Of a DNA stretch of 64,000 nucleotides, positions 2,975-63,197 are shown piece by piece. The notes under the pieces were generated by a model. The model made no database searches and was not told where the DNA came from. It saw only the letters and a program-made list of their open reading frames with translations. Position 1 is the stretch's first letter; the number at the start of each line of letters is the position of its first letter. Both the position numbers and the translations under genes were made by a program. The stretch spans positions 60,202,001 to 60,266,000 of the forward strand of contig OX597827.1 in NCBI GenBank assembly GCA_951406725.2, written 5' to 3'. This stretch comes from Octopus vulgaris. Lineage: Eukaryota.

Positions 2975-3132
2975 TACATTATTTACATTATTTACAATTG
3001 ATGGATATTTGTCCTCCTCTTGTTTGTTGTTAACACAATGTTTCGGTTGATATACCCTCCAGCCTTCATCAGGTGTCTTGGGGAAAATTTCGAACCTGAG
3101 TTCTCATTCCTAAGGTACTTTTCGATGTTGTT
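2975..3132 (-). mobile_element. Penelope-like terminal repeat (inverted copy) with hammerhead motif
   Basis: 3049-3132 is the reverse complement of 4069-4150; contains hammerhead core on minus strand. Confidence 0.7.
3033..3076 (-). ncRNA. Minimal type I hammerhead ribozyme motif (slightly decayed)
   Basis: ACAC-CUGAUGA-A-GGCUG(gagggUaUaU)CAACC-GAAAC-AUU-GUGU; stem I ACAC/GUGU. Confidence 0.7.
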
Positions 3133-3173: not shown

Positions 3174-3427
<254 letters not shown>

Positions 3428-3433
3428 GAGAAT

Positions 3434-3866
3434 AATAGAGAAATTAAGGCCAACAGACCAGATATAGTTGTCAGAGATCATGAAGAAAAAAAATGCTTTC
3501 TAATTGATGTATCAATACCGGCAGATGACAACGTGTCTCTAAAAGAAATGGAGAAACTCTCAAAATACAAAGACCTGGAAATAGAGGTAACTAGAATGTG
3601 GAATCTGAAAACAGAAACAATTCCTATCATAGTAGGTGCATTCGGCATGATAAAAAAATATTCAGACAAATACATAACAAAAACACCAGGACTTACAAAC
3701 ACATATATCATACAGAAAATTGCACTACTAGGCACTGCACACATCCTACGCAGAGCACTTTCCATACAATAACCATCAGAGCATCACAACAAATCACAGC
3801 ACATACCCAAGGCACACAGAGCTGCGCTCGGTAGTGAAGTGAAAGCACGCTATAAAAATAAAACTA

Positions 3867-4073: not shown

Positions 4074-4150
4074 ATCGAAAAATACCTTAGGAATGAGAAC
4101 TCAGGTTCGAAATTTCCCCAAGACACCTGATGAAGGCTGGAGGGTATATC
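4069..4150 (+). mobile_element. Penelope-like terminal repeat, truncated within the hammerhead
   Basis: acacCTGATGAaggctggagggtatatc; inverted partner of 3049-3132. Confidence 0.7.
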
Positions 4151-20244: not shown

Positions 20245-20530
20245 CATATGTGTGTATGTATGTATATCATATATATACATATATGCATATATATATATAT
20301 ATATCCATACATACATACATACATGCATATATATATATATATATATATATAAATAATAAATATTAGGGAATAAATCCAAATTTACAGGGAAAAAATCCGA
20401 TTAAGGATTAAATCCAATTTTATAGTAAAATATTATAAAATATTATTAGAGACAAAACCACTATTTTGCAAAACAAACAAGGAAAGACTTAATCAATACA
20501 TAAAATTTTAATAAATAGTCAAAAAAACCG

Positions 20531-20573
20531 CCACTACAATCGTTTCTTGTCTTGATCGACAATCTTCAGGTGG
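20531..20573 (-). ncRNA. Type I hammerhead ribozyme motif (mirror copy)
   Basis: Identical to 20620-20662 on the opposite strand. Confidence 0.75.
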
Positions 20574-20619
20574 ACTTCAATAAGTCAGTTTCAATAATTT
20601 GAAACTGACTTATTGAAGT

Positions 20620-20662
20620 CCACCTGAAGATTGTCGATCAAGACAAGAAACGATTGTAGTGG
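20620..20662 (+). ncRNA. Type I hammerhead ribozyme motif
   Basis: CCAC-CUGAAGA-UUGUC(gaucaa)GACAA-GAAAC(gauu)GUA-GUGG. Confidence 0.75.
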
Positions 20663-20834
20663 CGGTTTTTTTGACTATTTATTAAAATTTTATGTATTGA
20701 TTAAGTCTTTCCTTGTTTGTTATTTTTATAAATAGTATTTTACATCTCTAATAATATTTTATATATATATATATATATATATCATATACATTGTAGACAT
20801 ACATCTATATATTATACAGAAATCTATAATGGAG

Positions 20835-38574: not shown

Positions 38575-38784
38575 TATAGGAAAATTTTCCAAAAATAATA
38601 AAAAGCCGAAGACAGGTGGTATACAAAACAAACAGATGTATTAGTATAACGCTCAGGAATAGAAACAGTATTTTACGTTTCGAGCCTACGCTCTTCTACA
38701 GAAAGGTACACAGAAAAAAAACAAGGAGAGAAACAAGGAGAGGATGTTAAATGTGTATAGAGGCTAACGATCTATCATGGCGTC

Positions 38785-42046: not shown

Positions 42047-43358
42047 TATTGGCCACACAGGGCTGCACACAGATGGGACAAGTTACAAGGTAGAGCTTTT
42101 CTTTTGGGGGATGAAAAAAACAAAAAACAAAAGAAAAAAAAAGGGTTGGCGTAGGTTTTCGATCAAGAGGGATCGTAAAAGGGAAGAAAAGAACAAAAAT
42201 AAATAAATAAATAAATAAAATAAAAAATAAAAGGAATAAAAAGAAAAAAAAAGAAAAGGAAAAGGAACAAAAGAAAAGAGAATTGAAAAAAGAAGAAAAA
42301 AGGGGAAAAAAGGGGGAAGAGGAAAAAAAACGATCAATAGGGATTGTGTATCACAGTGTTATGATATATGGTGTAAAGGGGAAAGCAAGTAAGGTTTATC
42401 CGTGGGAAGAAAAGCCTACGAAAAAGACCACGGTAACCTTGGTCAATATTGTTATATGTTACCACATTTGTTTGCAAGTGGGTAACCCTCTGTTTTCAAT
42501 TTCTGGGTTCATAGGATTATGCTCAAGGTGGCTTCGTCATTCATACGTGCCATCCTTGCTACATTCACCCATCTTTTTTTAAAACATTCGCTAGACAAAA
42601 CTTGCCTCTCTACTCTCACTTTCCTTTTCAAGTGGTACTTGAAGAAGTTGATGAGAGATTGACCAGAGAGGAAAGTGTTTGTCTCCAATCCTTTCAGACG
42701 CGTCCACCAGATACATTCTTTCGCCATAGCCACAAGGATGATGAAAATAGCTCTTCCTTCCCGTTTGAAGGAAGGAGGCGTGACAATATTGACGATAGAC
42801 TCAGCTGATAAACCGACTCATCCCACACGTGACAGCAGTTGTTCGACATAAGCCCACAGGTCGGAAATTGTTGGACACTGCATGAGTGCGTGCAGAACGG
42901 TTGCGTCGCTCTGACCGCATCTCGGGCAGGTCGGCCCCGTGTTTCTCGAGCCGTGTCTGTAGAGCTTATCCCGAACGGGTAGCGCTTCTCGGTAGCACTG
43001 CCAGGCCAGGGATCTCTGGAAGTTGTCCATGGGCCATGGCTCGAAAGTCGTCCTGAACAGGCGGGTCAGGTACTCCTCGTCGACGTCCAGGTTCGCCCCG
43101 AGCTCGTCGTCGTGCCTCCCCTCCACTAATCCCCTATAGAATGCTTTGGTTGTGTTGAAGTCACTCAAGGTCGACCCAGGACGGCAGAGTTGCTTGAGAG
43201 CAACGCGACACTCGCGGTGCCATTCGCCCTTCCTCGGCCTCTTTTTGATCCACGACTGCAGTTCGGTCATGGAGACGAGCTGCGGGAAAGCGTGCCTCAC
43301 AAACGGCGACCACACCTGTTCACCGTCGTCTACGAAGAGCCTGAGATGTCGCAGTCTC
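42046..43358 (-). mobile_element. Tx1/L1-clade LINE 3' portion (zf-RVT), one nonsense change at 42818
   Basis: [38 protein letters not shown] finger; nearly identical to 47391-48635. Confidence 0.9.
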
Positions 43359-43370
43359 ATAGATAGGTAA

Positions 43371-43529
43371 GTTTCTTTATTGGCCACACAGGGCTGCACA
43401 CAGATGGGACAAGTTACAAGGTAGAGCTTTTCTTTTGGGGAGAAAAAAAAAGGTGGCGTAGGTTTTCGATCAAAAGAGATCGTAAAAGGGGAAAAAAAGG
43501 AAAAGAAAAAAAGGGAAAAAAAGAAAAGA

Positions 43530-43531
<2 letters not shown>
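43371..43531 (-). mobile_element. Tx1/L1-clade LINE 3' UTR, third copy
   Basis: gtttctttattggccacacagggctgcacacag terminus followed by (GATA)n. Confidence 0.85.
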
Positions 43532-43587
<56 letters not shown>

Positions 43588-43606
43588 GGTTGATAGATAG
43601 ATGGTT

Positions 43607-43669
<63 letters not shown>

Positions 43670-43701
43670 GGTTGATAGATAGATAGATGATAAATAGATA
43701 A

Positions 43702-43775
<74 letters not shown>

Positions 43776-43788
43776 GATAGATAGATAA

Positions 43789-43855
<67 letters not shown>

Positions 43856-44237
43856 CACAGAGTCAGACAGACAGACAGACAGAGAAGGATAAAGAGAGAT
43901 TATAAATAGAGAAAGTTAGAGGTATAGTAAAACAGAGAAAAGTAGAAAATGAGAATAAGATGGATGTCAAGAAAATCGAGTGAGCAGTTGGTCCACGTGA
44001 TTATTGAAGCCAAAGACCATTGGTCGATATTGTTGCAAGAAAAAAAAAATAATATTTAAATCAAGAAAAAAATATTTAAACCAAACAAACACTGAAAAAG
44101 TAAGTGGAAAGTATTGCTCTCATCATTTACTGTATATATCTGCTTCTTTCTGTCTTTGCTGTTGAACTTACAGGAGTTCTTAAGAGAGTCGTAAGTGGAG
44201 TTATTTTAATAGTTGTTATCCTAGCGGATATTGCAAC

Positions 44238-47390: not shown

Positions 47391-48633
47391 TGTTTCTTTA
47401 TTAGCCACACAGGGCTGCACACAGATAGAACAAATTACAAGGTAGAGCTTTTCTTTTGAAGGTTTAAAAAAAAAAAAAAAGGAAGGGGGAGTTTCGATCA
47501 AAAGGGATCGTAAAAGGAGAGAAAGAGGACAAAAAAATGGGGGGTTAAAAAAAAAGGGGGGAGAGAAAAAAAAATTTGATCAATAGGGATCGTTATCACA
47601 GAAATGTCAATATGAAGTGTAAAGGGAGGACAGGTGAGGTTTACCCGTGGAAAGAAAAGCCTACGGAAAAGACCACGGTAACCTCGGTCAATGGAGTCAC
47701 ATGTTATATTTCTTTTTTTTTTTTTTTTTTGCAAATAAGCAACTCTCTGTTTTCAATTTCTGGGTTCATAGGATCATGCTCAAGGTGGCTTCGTCATTCA
47801 TACGTGCCATTCTTGCTACATTCACCCATCTTTTTTTAAAACATTCGCTAGACAAAACTTGCCTCTCTACTCTCACTTTCCTTTTCAAGTGGTACTTGAA
47901 GAAGTTGATGAGAGATTGACCAGAGAGGAAAGTGTTTGTCTCCAATCCTTTCAGACGCGTCCACCAGATACATTCTTTCGCCATAGCCACAAGGATGATG
48001 AAAATAGCTCTTCCTTCCCGTTTGAAGGAGGGAGGCGTGACAATATTAACGATAGACTCAGCTGATAAACCGACTCGTCCCACACGTGACAGCAGTTGTT
48101 CGACACAAGCCCACAGGTCGGAAATTGTTGGACACTGCACGAGTGCGTGCAGAACGGTTTCGACGCTCTGACCGCATCTCGGGCAGGTCGGCCCCGTGTT
48201 TCTCGAGCCGTATCTGTAGAGCTTATCCCGAACGGGTAGCGCTTCTCGGTAGCACTGCCAGGCCAGGGGTCTCTGGAAGTTGTCCATGGGCCCTGGCCCG
48301 AAAGTCGTCCTGAACAGGCGTGTCAGGTACTCCTCGTCGACGTCCAGGTTCGCCCCGAGCTCGTCGTCGTACCTCCCCTCCACTAAACTCCTATAGAATG
48401 CTTTGGTTGTGTTGAAGTCACTCAAGGTCGACCCAGGACGGCAGAGTTGCTTGAGAGCAACGCGACACTCGCGGTGCCATTCGCCCTTCTTCGGCCTCTT
48501 TTTGATCCACGACTGCAGTTCGGTCATGGAGACGAGCTGCGGGAAAGCGTGCCTCACAAACGGCGACCACACCTGTTCACCGTCGTCTACATAGAGCCAG
48601 AGATGTCGCAGTCTCAGCGCGTGTCTGCGCATC

Positions 48634-48635
<2 letters not shown>
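47391..48635 (-). mobile_element. Tx1/L1-clade LINE 3' portion with open ORF2 C-terminus (47766-48635), inserted in (GATA)n
   Basis: [55 protein letters not shown]; AATAAA near 3' end. Confidence 0.92.
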
Positions 48636-48731
<96 letters not shown>

Positions 48732-50534
48732 GTGTTCCGACTCTCTGCGCTCCAAGTTCAAATTCCATCAAGATTCATTTTGCTTTATTATCCTTTGGTT
48801 TGGAAGTCGATAAATATATTAGTAAAGTACTGGTATCAATTCGTCTTTTCCTGTCTTTCCCCCTTTCTCATTCTCTCTCTTTCCCTCCTCTCTCTCTCTC
48901 TCTTTCTCCTTCTCTCATTCATTCATCTTTCTGTTTCTGACTGTCACAATTTGCTACGCTACGCTGTGACAGAGTCGTGGATGACGTCGCAAAGTCTAAA
49001 AAAACAATATAATACAAAATATATAATATAAAAATTGACATAATATAAAAAAAAAATCTCCAGGGACTTTGGAACAGCCACCCACACTTCAAGATTTGAT
49101 AGTTACAGATGAGGATTAAACGATTATACTTCTAGCTTACAGCTTTCCGTTTCATATCACTGTTAGCCGGAATTTATGAAGGCGACTCGGCGAATTGTTA
49201 ACTTCTGGTTTGTCATGTGTACAGGATTGCATTTTGCTGAGTACTAATTTTTGTGATTAAGCTTGTTTGCTCAGATACTATTGTTTGGGTAAGGATTGAA
49301 GGAATAAATTTATTTTTGTGACTACACATAAACGTTAGCTCAGATCTTCGTTTAAGGTGTCACTTGATTTGATAAGGCTGATGTATTTTCATCATTACAC
49401 GGATTACATTAGAACAAAGGGACTACTAGATGCTGAAGTACAGTAGTGACAAGGTGATATTAAAGTTGTCACTGTTGTAGCTCTTGATTTGATAATGTAC
49501 TCTTTATTTTGTCTATATGTTAAAATGTGGATTTGTTTTAGATACCATCTCTTAAAGCCACCCTCACACATTCTGATGTTACTAAGGAACTGTGTACTTC
49601 CTGGGACTGACATTGTAACTTGGTGGATCAGTGATTCAGCTTTGCGTAAATTACTGCAGTGGCGAGAGGCTGAATAAACCTTTATTTCGGAGTACCTCCC
49701 TACTACGTAAGTTGGAATTATCATTAGCTTATTAGCACCAGACAAAGCAAGGGCCACAGACCACAAACCTATCTGGAAAGTAGTACCCAGACAAAGCCAT
49801 TACATAGTCCGCAGAAGTAAGAGAAAACTTCACCGCAAAATTTTATATCTGAGTAACATCTAATAAATTCAAATTGCATTATAACCAACACCTGAATTCA
49901 TTCAGAAACATTGTTTAAAAAGTTCATGTACAAGACTATCAAACCACATAAGGAGCCTAAGAAACTTCAACAACCACATTCCTTTACGTGGAACAGAGAT
50001 AAATCATAGAGAGCAGCCACAGCACATAGGAAAGCATATTCAACATCCGATAGTGATTACTGTTGTTTAAAACCAAGTCATCACTGTTTGATCACAGGTA
50101 TTCCAGCCGTACCCACCCAATTTTTTCGTGTGGTTAGAAAACCAAGGACCACATTTTCCAACATGTCTTCTATGAGGCTATGTCATCATCTCACAGGATC
50201 TGGATGCTATTTCTAGCAAATCAATCTCAAGACTGAACAAAAGGGATCGAATAGTAATATAGTTGAATGTCGAAACGGAATCCCAACTTTGTGGCCAGCA
50301 TGAAGGCATGTGTAAGTGCATGTGTGTTTATTGATTACACGTACTCCACTGTATATACATGGGGGGGTGTTTGTGTGTGTATTTGTCTGTGCGTACGTGC
50401 GCCTGCGTTCACAATTAACGTACATTTTCCTCATTAATTATTAGGGCGGAATGAGGTGGTTGACATAAACAAACTGACTTAACTTTCGTAGCCGAACTTT
50501 CCTTTCCTCTACGGTGTTTTTTTTTCCCTAAAGG

Positions 50535-60588: not shown

Positions 60589-61823
60589 TACGTTGATAAA
60601 TACACATATAAAATGGCTTTGTTTCAATGATCTTTTCAACTAACGGTTTTTTTCAATAACCAGCTACATAAATTACGATTTAAAATCATTTTATTATAAA
60701 AGTCGAAGAAAACCTTAAATCAAAAATTAGCTTTAGTAGAAGGGGAAAAAACTGTGTACCCAGGGTAAATTAATTAATGGTAAGAATATATTTAAATAAA
60801 TTTAAAAGAAATGTCCCTTTAAAATAAAACCATTTTAAGATTAAGACATTTTTATTTTATTATTTAAAACAAAGTGGAGGCACATGGCATAGTGGTTAGA
60901 GCAGGGGACTCGCGGTCGATGGATCGCGGGTTCGAATCTCACACCGGGCTATGTGTGTTTTATGAGCGAAACACCTAAACTCCATGCAGCTCCGGCAGAA
61001 GGTAAAGGCGAAATTCTGCTGACTCTTTCGCCACAACCTCCTCTTACTCTTTTCTGCTGCATCTTGCAGCTCACCTGCAATGGACCGGCGTGCCGTCCAG
61101 GTGGAGAACCTCTATACGCCAAGGAAACCGGCCCTTATGAGCCAGGCATGGCTTGGGAAGGAACAAACATTTAAAATAATAACGTTTTTATTTTATTTTA
61201 AACGGTTATATTTATTAATAAATCTCCGAACGAGATATAAACAGTAACCGCTCGACAACGTAAAGTGTGCTAGCCATCTGAATGTGGCTAGCCATCTGAA
61301 TGTGGCTAGCCAATGGGGGTGGGATGTTACTGAAGCTTTTAGCCCCAGGAGATCAACGTCTCCAGCTGACCTTAGACACAATTTCAGTGCCCTTATGTTA
61401 TTTGCAAAGGGAGGTCATCCTCCCTCGAAAACCTAAGTGATACATACGGACTAGGTTTTCGAGGGAGGATGACCTCCCTTTGCAAATAACACAAGGGCAC
61501 TGAAATTGTGTCTAAGGCCAGCTGGAGACGTTGATCTCCTGGGGCTAAAAGCTTCAGTAACACCCCACCCCCAGTGGCTAGCCACATTCAGATGGCGAGC
61601 ACACTTTACGTGGTTATATTTATTTTTACCATTAATTAATTTACCCTGAGTATACAGGGGTTTTTGTTCCTTCTACTAAAGCTAATTTTTGATTTAAGGT
61701 TTTCTTGGATTTTTATTATATGCTTTTAAATTGTAATTGTAATTTCACACAACCGGTTATTGTGTTGAAAGGATCAATGAAACAAAACCATTTTCAAATG
61801 TGTATCTATCAGCGTAATTGTAA
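60583..61823. repeat. Large imperfect fold-back (outer arms 60583-60790 / 61616-61823; inner arms 61258-61435 / 61452-61611)
   Basis: Direct reverse-complement comparison. Confidence 0.85.
60874..61170 (+). mobile_element. SINE family C/D-type variant inserted in the left arm of the fold-back
   Basis: ggaggcacatggcatagtggttagagcag..gggttcgaatc head; D-like 3' part atggaccggcgtgccgtccaggtgg. Confidence 0.8.
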
Positions 61824-61861
61824 ATTTATGCATATATCCATATTTTGTTCCATTCTCAACC

Positions 61862-61907
61862 AAAACTGTCTGACGAACGGGAACGTGAAACTCTGTGTAA
61901 CAGTTTT
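61862..61907 (+). ncRNA. Intact-looking type I hammerhead motif within Penelope-like repeat (about 61840-62001)
   Basis: AAAACUGU-CUGACGA-ACG(ggaa)CGU-GAAAC(ucugu)GUA-ACAGUUUU. Confidence 0.78.
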
Positions 61908-62074
61908 TGTGATGTCTTTGCAGCTTTATTAATAAAGCATATTACTCTACCTCTGGTATTCGAGTACTATTTTTTACCACCTTGTTTCACATTTATGTTT
62001 ATAGTGATCAAATGTTCGTGGCGCGCATTAGCTCCCTGCCTCCATCAAATCGACTTTACCTGAACAGGTGCACA

Positions 62075-62358
62075 ATGTACCACGCGTCAGGTGTCGAAGT
62101 GATCGCAGAGCAACGTGAAATGAAGTGTTTTGGTCGAGAACGCAACGCACCACCCAGACTTGGAATTGAAACCACGATTGCTAGTGCAACACCCTAACGA
62201 CTAGGCCATGTGTGGTAAGTAGCTTGCTTACCAATCACATGGTTCCGGGTTCAGTCCCACTGCGTGGCACCTTAGGCAAGTGTCTTCTACTATAGCCTCG
62301 GGCCGACCAAAGCCTTGTGAGTGGATTTCGTAGACGGAAACTGAAAGAAGCCCATCGT
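62075..62358. mobile_element. Head-to-head SINE D (minus, 62075-62210) and SINE B 5' half (plus, 62208-62358)
   Basis: Matches to both families. Confidence 0.75.
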
Positions 62359-62469
62359 TTATATGTATGTGTGTGTGTTTGCGTGTGTGTGTATGTGTTT
62401 GTGTGTGTGTGTGTGTGTTATTACACCCATTTTCTTCTCATATCTATCTATCTCTCTATATATATATAT

Positions 62470-62711
62470 ATTGGGTTGGCGCATAATTATTGCCGCTTTT
62501 GTTTCAACAAATTTTATTCAACAAAAATAATAACTAAATGTAACAAAAACATCTTTAAATGATTATTCCGGAGCATATTCACCATCTACTTCAATTTGCT
62601 TGGCGGGCGGTCAGACCGTCATTTAAAGATGTTTTTGTTAAATATTGTTATTGTTTTTGTTGAATGAAATTTGTTGAAGAAAAATAGCCGCAATAATCAT
62701 GCACCAACCGA
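62470..62711. mobile_element. Mariner-derived MITE with ~93-bp inverted arms
   Basis: TIR ttgggttggcgcataattattgccgc resembles Hsmar1/Made1-type TIR; arms 62470-62562 / 62619-62711. Confidence 0.8.
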
Positions 62712-63066
62712 AACGCGGAGTAGATGAAAAAGGGACAACTGATGAAGGGGAATATTCTTTCTGTTGCATGTCTCGTTTCTCTATTTGTTTTCTTTTTTTC
62801 GTTTTCTATGTTTTCATTTTTATGTTTTCGTTTCTCATTGTGTTCAACGTTCTTTATGTCCTGTACCCATATATGCATGTGACCAGCAATTTTTTTTCCT
62901 CTGTCTTCCCTTCTCGGGATCTTTCCTTCTCCTTTGTTTCCGACGAAGAGCTCCGCTCGAAACGTTAAACCCTCCCTCCCTTCTTTCCTGAGCGTCCAAT
63001 AATACTTTATTTGTTCCACGTCCTCGCGTTGCTGTTTTTTTGTGTTTTTTGTTTGGATTAACTTTA
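62708..63066 (+). mobile_element. Penelope-like terminal-repeat element with two hammerhead-related motifs
   Basis: cc-GAAAC..ggacaa-CTGATGA-agg at 62708-62750 and type I motif at 62936-62970; 3' part related to the 31.3/38.6-kb family. Confidence 0.7.
62936..62970 (+). ncRNA. Minimal type I hammerhead motif with CCGACGA core
   Basis: GUUU-CCGACGA-A-GAGC(ucc)GCUC-GAAACGUU-AAAC. Confidence 0.7.
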
Positions 63067-63197
63067 TGCATGTATATATACATATATATGTAGGTATGTA
63101 CATATATGTATGTATATATGCATATATTTATATATTATTCATATTATTATATGATCGAACGCCACGCATCCCTTTCCAAGTAAGTTTCATATATATG

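Follow-up and report, generated by a model that had tools for sequence, protein, structure and literature searches.

A putative permuted hammerhead ribozyme beside a minimal type I hammerhead in an abundant octopus repeat

Introduction

Permuted hammerhead ribozymes are described by the order of three blocks: S, the cleavage-site strand (also X); G, the GAAA block (Z); and C, the CUGAnGA block (Y) (Eckert et al., 2023; PMC10085705). These block names are used here. In the accessible parts of that work, the type-SGC alignment has a short G-to-C spacer, a stem I of 3-5 bp, and, in nearly all sequences, a single additional base separating CUGAnGA from G10.1. Stem I is preceded by a purine-rich strand, which is paired with a pyrimidine-rich strand that follows stem II. 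Published SGC cleavage rates range from 0.007 to 0.19 per minute (PMC10085705). The published SGC ribozymes come from metatranscriptomes, and Eckert et al. report none in the genomes of known organisms in RefSeq 85.

Penelope-like elements have been known since 2014 to carry minimal type I hammerheads (PMC4209133). According to the parts of that report available, these motifs are characterized by an extra base after A9, a G10.1-C11.1 pair, palindromic positions 15.2-16.2, and covariation across families, and they cut poorly in vitro. Among Penelope-like elements, the Poseidon element PAc of Anolis combines a minimal hammerhead with AT-rich targets; the available text describes no permuted motif in it, and its cleavage is protein-assisted and was unnecessary for insertion in vitro (PMC11167929). 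Non-LTR retrozymes are small non-coding units bounded by hammerhead cuts, arranged in tandem so that every unit carries the same type I motif, and a Penelope pseudo-LTR origin has been proposed for them (PMC7229834; bioRxiv 10.64898/2026.07.22.740005). Craig et al. (2021; PMC8557442), as far as the accessible text goes, note "half cores" at 35-50 nt on both sides in Naiad elements, and these may represent a pattern related to the one described below.

A truncated repeat copy next to a MITE

The window is a 64,000-nt stretch of Octopus vulgaris contig OX597827.1, and positions are counted from its first letter. Three features define the setting of the two hammerhead motifs:

62471 to 62709, strand not assigned: MITE with long terminal inverted repeats; its left end follows TA, and its right repeat is broken off at the junction
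62709 to 63066, + strand: 5'-truncated copy of an abundant repeat, with its 3' end at a (TA)n-rich tract and contigs from four runs and four organisms
62885 to 62888, + strand: gap relative to the family, with about 14 nt absent from the window copy and loose ends before 62889 in four of four runs

The MITE is presumably of the mariner type. Its right inverted repeat would be expected to end in ...CCAACCCAA followed by TA, whereas it actually reads ...CCAACCGAAAC, with no TA past the junction. Because the last bases of the right repeat and the TA are missing, C62708 is probably MITE sequence, and the repeat fragment appears to have been joined via a few shared bases. The original prediction placed the start of the G block exactly at the MITE end. 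The two do adjoin, but the junction overlaps through C62708, and in the proposed stem II arm of the G block C62709 alone can safely be assigned to the repeat.

The repeat is likely Penelope-like, given its minimal hammerhead, (TA)n end, and truncation. Inspection of the frames of at least 110 aa in the window revealed no Penelope ORF, the 64,000 nt contain no second copy of the 62709-63066 repeat, and its motifs had no match in the Naiad/Chlamys/Hydra consensus file. On the antisense strand, one frame is open for 119 codons (62708-63064, - strand). This frame has no homologue, and its openness probably reflects A-rich composition.

Part of the stretch is present in 20 of the 24 public runs listed, from four organisms; no RNA dataset is among the runs listed as carrying it. 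Contigs from four runs, one per organism (X1, X5, X7, and X8), were mapped at 80% likeness, and 14080, 8294, 10368, and 5043 of them fell on the repeat region, covering 30, 29, 30, and 30 of 30 bins. Contig cover rises about 10- to 80-fold across 62702-62715, and 5 of the 32 pieces listed, from three runs, start at the junction (four at 62709 and one at 62708). Thus, the G block belongs to the repeat rather than to the MITE. Copies that extend further upstream exist: two pieces run about 714 and about 918 nt past the junction. No loose ends are found at 62708 among the 24 listed, with a further 1057 outside the listing.

No contig among the 32 pieces listed spans both hammerhead motifs; in this set, pieces with the G block extend to 62875, and pieces of the 3' half begin at 62892. 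The link between the halves is indirect. The family segment missing at 62885-62888 includes TGTGACC in three runs and TGACC in one; this matches the letters at 62878-62884 and so places the upstream and 3' halves in one family. Contig depth at the downstream motif is 11-30 times that at the C block, although depth does not equal copy number; the excess hints at 5' truncation of copies, which it fits.

The downstream motif

The original prediction included a type I motif about 190 nt downstream of the upstream blocks, and one is present there, separated from the C block by 188 nt:

62936 to 62970, + strand: minimal type I hammerhead with a 4-bp stem I, CCGACGA, an extra A, a 4-bp stem II, GAAAC, and an AACGUU palindrome

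The motif reads GTTT (62936-62939), CCGACGA (62940-62946), A62947, GAGC/GCTC forming stem II, GAAAC (62959-62963), GTT with H17 at 62966, and AAAC (62967-62970). All eight pairs of stems I and II are Watson-Crick, and the cut is predicted after 62966. The pattern, which was devised after the sequence had been seen, occurs in 0 of 100 shuffles of the window. As judged from its letters, the motif is a Penelope-type minimal type I hammerhead, a kind already known. In addition to the core boxes and a short stem I, it displays three of the four traits listed for such motifs (PMC4209133), namely the extra base after A9, G10.1-C11.1, and the palindromic 15.2-16.2. Also shared with the motifs in the available parts of that report are the type I architecture, the absence of loop 3, and the occurrence mostly as single truncated copies. 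The differences are fourfold. Stem II has 4 bp here and 7-8 bp in the Schistosoma families; core position 4 is mostly C, unlike in the described minimal hammerheads; the repeat is known here without a linked ORF; and where the described elements have one motif type per flanking repeat (PMC4209133), this motif has a neighbor of a second type, in putatively permuted order.

Variation within the family is largely compatible with an intact motif. At core position 4, this copy and most of the family have C, and a C>T change that gives the canonical U4 accounts for 20-28% of depth. At H17, T>C reaches 24% in X1 and 2-3% in the other runs, a change that still satisfies NUH, and C>T at 62970 (7-18%) leaves a wobble pair in place. 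Two changes in X1 count against the motif, G12>A (10%) and A>T at 62968 (16%). Lacking a stem III loop, the downstream motif would need to dimerize by way of the AACGUU palindrome in order to cut, and would do so slowly or with protein help.

The window contains several other hammerheads. A complete type I motif of another family lies at 61862-61907 (+), with an 8-bp stem I, CUGACGA, a 3-bp stem II, and GAAAC-N5-GUA (core at 61870). Around 20530-20665 is a head-to-head inverted type I pair, with cores at 20624 (+) and 20569 (-), a 5-bp stem II, and GAAAC-N4-GUA; this arrangement has been described for Penelope-like insertions. A sister family is represented by copies at 38701 (-) and about 31350 (-); both have degenerate cores (CTGTAGA and CTGTTAA), lie within microsatellite, and share the GAGC...GCTCGAAACGT stem II and G block with the downstream motif. 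A further minimal-hammerhead family is found at 3072 (-) and 4130 (+), reading GACAC-CTGATGA-A-GGCTG..., and its copy at 4130 is truncated before GAAAC. Elsewhere, 61338-61549 form a near-perfect inverted repeat of about 200 nt, whose Rfam mir-584 match is below the gathering score and reflects the hairpin only. Two kinds of LINE fragments also appear to be present: a coding fragment at 3179-3772 (+), which we take to be the restriction-like endonuclease end, and, at 42818-43915 (-) and 47766-48767 (-), what are presumably near-identical C-terminal fragments of another LINE.

The upstream blocks

At the 5' end of the repeat copy, two hammerhead-like blocks follow each other in the order G, then C:

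62709 to 62720, + strand: candidate hammerhead G block, consisting of C11.1 and GAAA, then ACGCGGAG (stem III arm)
62733 to 62750, + strand: candidate hammerhead C block, consisting of GGACAA, CUGAUGA, an unpaired A, then G10.1 and the stem II arm
62730 to 62760, + strand: possible helix between AAGGGA (62730-62735) and UUCUUU (62755-62760), placed like the helix that joins stems I and II in SGC

The letters originally read for both blocks are all in place. The G block comprises C62708-C62709, GAAAC (62710-62714), and GCGGAG (62715-62720), and the C block comprises GGACAA (62733-62738), CTGATGA (62739-62745), the unpaired A62746, and GG(GG) (62747-62750). Position N7 of the C block is 62743 and is T or A within the family. 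On the 3' side of the C block, no GAAA occurs before 62935, so that the G block, 25 nt upstream, is the nearest partner. A loose G-then-C pattern, devised after the sequence had been seen, has one match in the window and turns up in 2 of 100 shuffles. Rfam finds no hammerhead at either threshold for the upstream or the downstream motif; since it also misses the clear downstream motif, its silence says little.

Sequence variation was read most fully in X5, for which all 30 substitutions of at least 5% are listed (per-run totals match the rows). The sole one within 62709-62753 is T>A at N7, at 62% of depth. The same change accounts for 15% in X1, 58% in X7, and 57% in X8, runs with 6 (X1), 5 (X7), and 5 (X8) substitutions of at least 5% beyond those listed; no G>T is hidden in any run. 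None of 15 variable sites in X5 falls on the 15 other C-block positions (P = 0.14), and the chance that a single variable C-block site falls at N7 is 1 in 16. In the same run, 1 of 21 sites varies in 62733-62753, compared with 14 of 107 in neighboring sequence. Conservation of the G block is only weakly measured by these data, because variants near contig ends are not listed. That the sole variable site is the freely variable N7 hints that the upstream core is under selection. Both blocks lie in one repeat family with a core-like pattern of change, which supports the proposal that they are hammerhead pieces.

Cover of the linker (62721-62732) relative to that of the C block is 0.38-0.40 in X5, X7, and X8 and 0.76 in X1, and it drops as the share of N7 = A rises. 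These ratios hint at a second subfamily with a different linker, tied to N7 = A, which would provide a natural source of covariation.

The lowest-energy fold of 62708-62800 is one long hairpin that buries both blocks (z = -1.57). The C block's stem II arm can also form a hairpin by itself (GGGG-AAUAUU-CUUU), resembling a type I stem II. The AAGGGA/UUCUUU helix is not above chance, with 669 of 5000 shuffles reaching 6 bp, and the T>C change at 62758 is compatible with the C-block hairpin and the joining helix alike.

Assignment of the upstream blocks to a hammerhead type

Type II (GSC) fails for these blocks. The sole UH triplet between them is GUA (62720-62722), which would give a stem III of 2 bp and a stem I of 0 bp, in agreement with the earlier statement that no type II stem I can form. 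Type GCS fails as well, as the 60600-63100 region has no S candidate with both stems of at least 4 bp and offers only U-rich wobble matches. With types II and GCS removed, SGC is left, provided that the G and C blocks act together in cis.

The layout resembles that of published SGC ribozymes. A G block and a C block are present, with G before C and without an S block between them. As in the HRIMA-1 and SGC variants of the accessible alignment, the spacer is short and within the published range, C11.1 precedes GAAA, one extra base separates CUGAnGA from G10.1, and the flanks of stems I and II leave space for a helix between them (PMC10085705). Deleting the S strand from a published SGC RNA would leave the layout found in the window. 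In contrast to the metatranscriptomic examples (PMC10085705), this is a chromosomal repeat, known from its G and C blocks without S. The window contains no S strand, and in this copy the MITE abuts the G block.

The permuted order is the best single explanation of the upstream blocks, as had been proposed. The reading favored here, held with a modest degree of confidence, is that they are a truncated, non-circularly permuted type-SGC hammerhead whose S strand lay just upstream and is absent from this copy. Octopus copies of the repeat may continue upstream with an S-like stretch; this expectation is no part of the evidence given here, but it helps to raise our confidence in the SGC reading to its present level from about even or slightly below. 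A little less firm is the broader proposition that an SGC hammerhead, a form known only from environmental RNA, resides within a very abundant animal retroelement family beside an ordinary minimal hammerhead; here the balance tips only slightly in favor.

If the blocks are of type SGC, intact copies would carry an upstream strand ...GCGU-H-UUG... that pairs with ACGC(G) to form stem III and with CAA to form stem I, and the base preceding GAAAC would pair with the G after CUGAUGA-A in stem II. The intact S-G-C RNA would fold as a pseudoknotted hammerhead and, as a monomer, self-cleave on the upstream side of the G block. The window copy itself, as its letters stand, cannot cut at the upstream site. 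An upstream strand with UUGUCC, which implies a 6-bp stem I, had been predicted earlier. This may be too strict, because published SGC stems I have 3-5 bp; a real joining helix would reduce stem I to CAA, and the S strand would then read ..GCGU-H-UUG, which is looser than predicted.

Searches for intact copies and earlier reports

Intact copies were sought in several collections. An exact-pattern scan of metagenomes returned one locus, a chance match in bacterial coding DNA with 15 nt in common; three exact-pattern scans of viral contigs and two of GTDB returned no loci (0, 0, 0 and 0, 0). A generic S-G-C pattern matched 34 viral loci, of which 0 of 34 had both stems I and II and none was homologous. 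Upstream sequence was also sought through spurious protein predictions, and three frames gave no homologue; phmmer returned one unrelated repetitive protein, and the ESM Atlas returned one weak and uninformative match.

Six repeat motifs searched in the full texts of papers matched one unrelated plant paper only. There was no match to the repeat motifs in the supplement of Craig et al. (2021; PMC8557442) or in the accessible supplements of SPLASH and Marino et al. (2022) (PMC9258296, PMC8967140). The supplements of Petrosino et al. (2022; PMC9115989) likewise gave no match within a scope that included file 8 by element names and excluded the transcriptome FASTA files as well as files 6 and 7. 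The readable part of the supplement of PMC10085705 contained none of the motifs except for one unrelated primer match. In the literature covered, a scope that excluded subscription papers and Lunse et al. (2017), we found no non-circular hammerhead described from an animal genome.

Alternative explanations

The explanation that survives best beside the SGC reading takes the two blocks apart. The G block would be the 3' half of an ordinary type I hammerhead whose CUGANGA half was lost by truncation, and the C block would be the orphan 5' half of another type I motif, since decayed, that a partial tandem duplication had left behind. This is unlikely but deserves weight. The G block can be read with a 2-bp stem III, a GCGGA loop, GUA (62720-62722) as the cleavage triplet with a cut after 62722, and an available stem I arm GAUG..., and the resulting GAAAC-GCGGA-GUA is shaped like GAAAC-N5-GUA at 61887-61899 and GAAAC-N4-GUA after the core at 20624. 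However, a GUH at such a distance is common by chance (about 30%, an estimate), and the GCGGA loop is non-palindromic, unlike most short-stem metazoan motifs in the available text of PMC4209133. Further points in favor of the explanation are that the C block has a hairpin of its own behind it, that Penelope-like elements typically show partial tandems (PMC8557442), and that type I is the rule in animals according to the parts available of PMC4209133 and PMC7229834. Against this, the explanation needs a dead half-motif to have stayed unchanged in four organisms save at N7, and it is less economical in requiring three hammerhead pieces instead of two. If it were true, the locus would be an ordinary truncated Penelope end of little interest.

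A worn version of a known motif was also considered, in which the G block would have decayed from ACGCGT, the palindrome of a minimal hammerhead that has no loop. Because none of the four runs hides a G>T, the family itself has G at 62718, and a worn palindrome of this kind was rejected.

That the upstream blocks are not a hammerhead at all, and are kept through the youth of the family or another job, for example as a protein-binding hairpin, is quite improbable. The long hairpin predicted for 62708-62800 and the negative Rfam result fit such an explanation, as does the modest size of the statistical signal (the P value and 1-in-16 chance given above). Yet the downstream motif escapes Rfam too, CGAAAC and CUGAUGA-A-G at a distance of 25 nt recur in 2 of 100 shuffles, and neighboring sites vary in X5 where the C-block region scarcely does.

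It is very improbable that the cleavage-site strand used by the G and C blocks lies downstream (type GCS) or on a second RNA copy: CCGCGU in the family segment lacking here (X5 and X7) gives a 6-bp match to ACGCGG, but it is followed by G rather than H, the register of its stem I arm is wrong, and the letters in X1 and X8 are CCUCGU; CUCGCGU at 63023-63029 gives a 5-bp match, but the base after H17 is G and does not pair with A62738; and the regional scan described above yielded no candidate.

Double cleavage and relation to retrozymes

Under the SGC reading, intact copies would have two cleavage sites, and double cleavage had been proposed earlier. If both cuts took place on one RNA, they could free a unit of at least about 270 nt, a size within the 170-400 nt reported for animal retrozyme RNAs (PMC7229834). 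Excision of such a unit is nevertheless doubtful, because minimal motifs cut poorly in vitro (PMC4209133) and cleavage in the Anolis element needs protein and is dispensable for insertion. PAc insertion in particular calls for caution with this model (PMC11167929). Assignment of the repeat to the non-LTR retrozymes was rejected, as the window has a single copy with two unlike motifs, compared with tandem units that each bear the same type I motif.

Implications

If the SGC reading is correct, the octopus repeat would hold the first pseudoknotted hammerhead permutation in an animal genome, and a ribozyme active as a monomer would be combined with a dimer-dependent one within one element. It would also suggest that descriptors restricted to type I miss ribozymes in Penelope-like elements, including those with reported half cores. 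The origin of the non-circular hammerhead permutations was left open in the accessible text of Eckert et al. (PMC10085705). Were the reading true, the copies and subfamilies of this family would suffice to trace how the order of the blocks was scrambled, and the origin of the permutation could be tested by alignment alone, given a chromosomal family that is present in many copies and has subfamilies in no fewer than four organisms.
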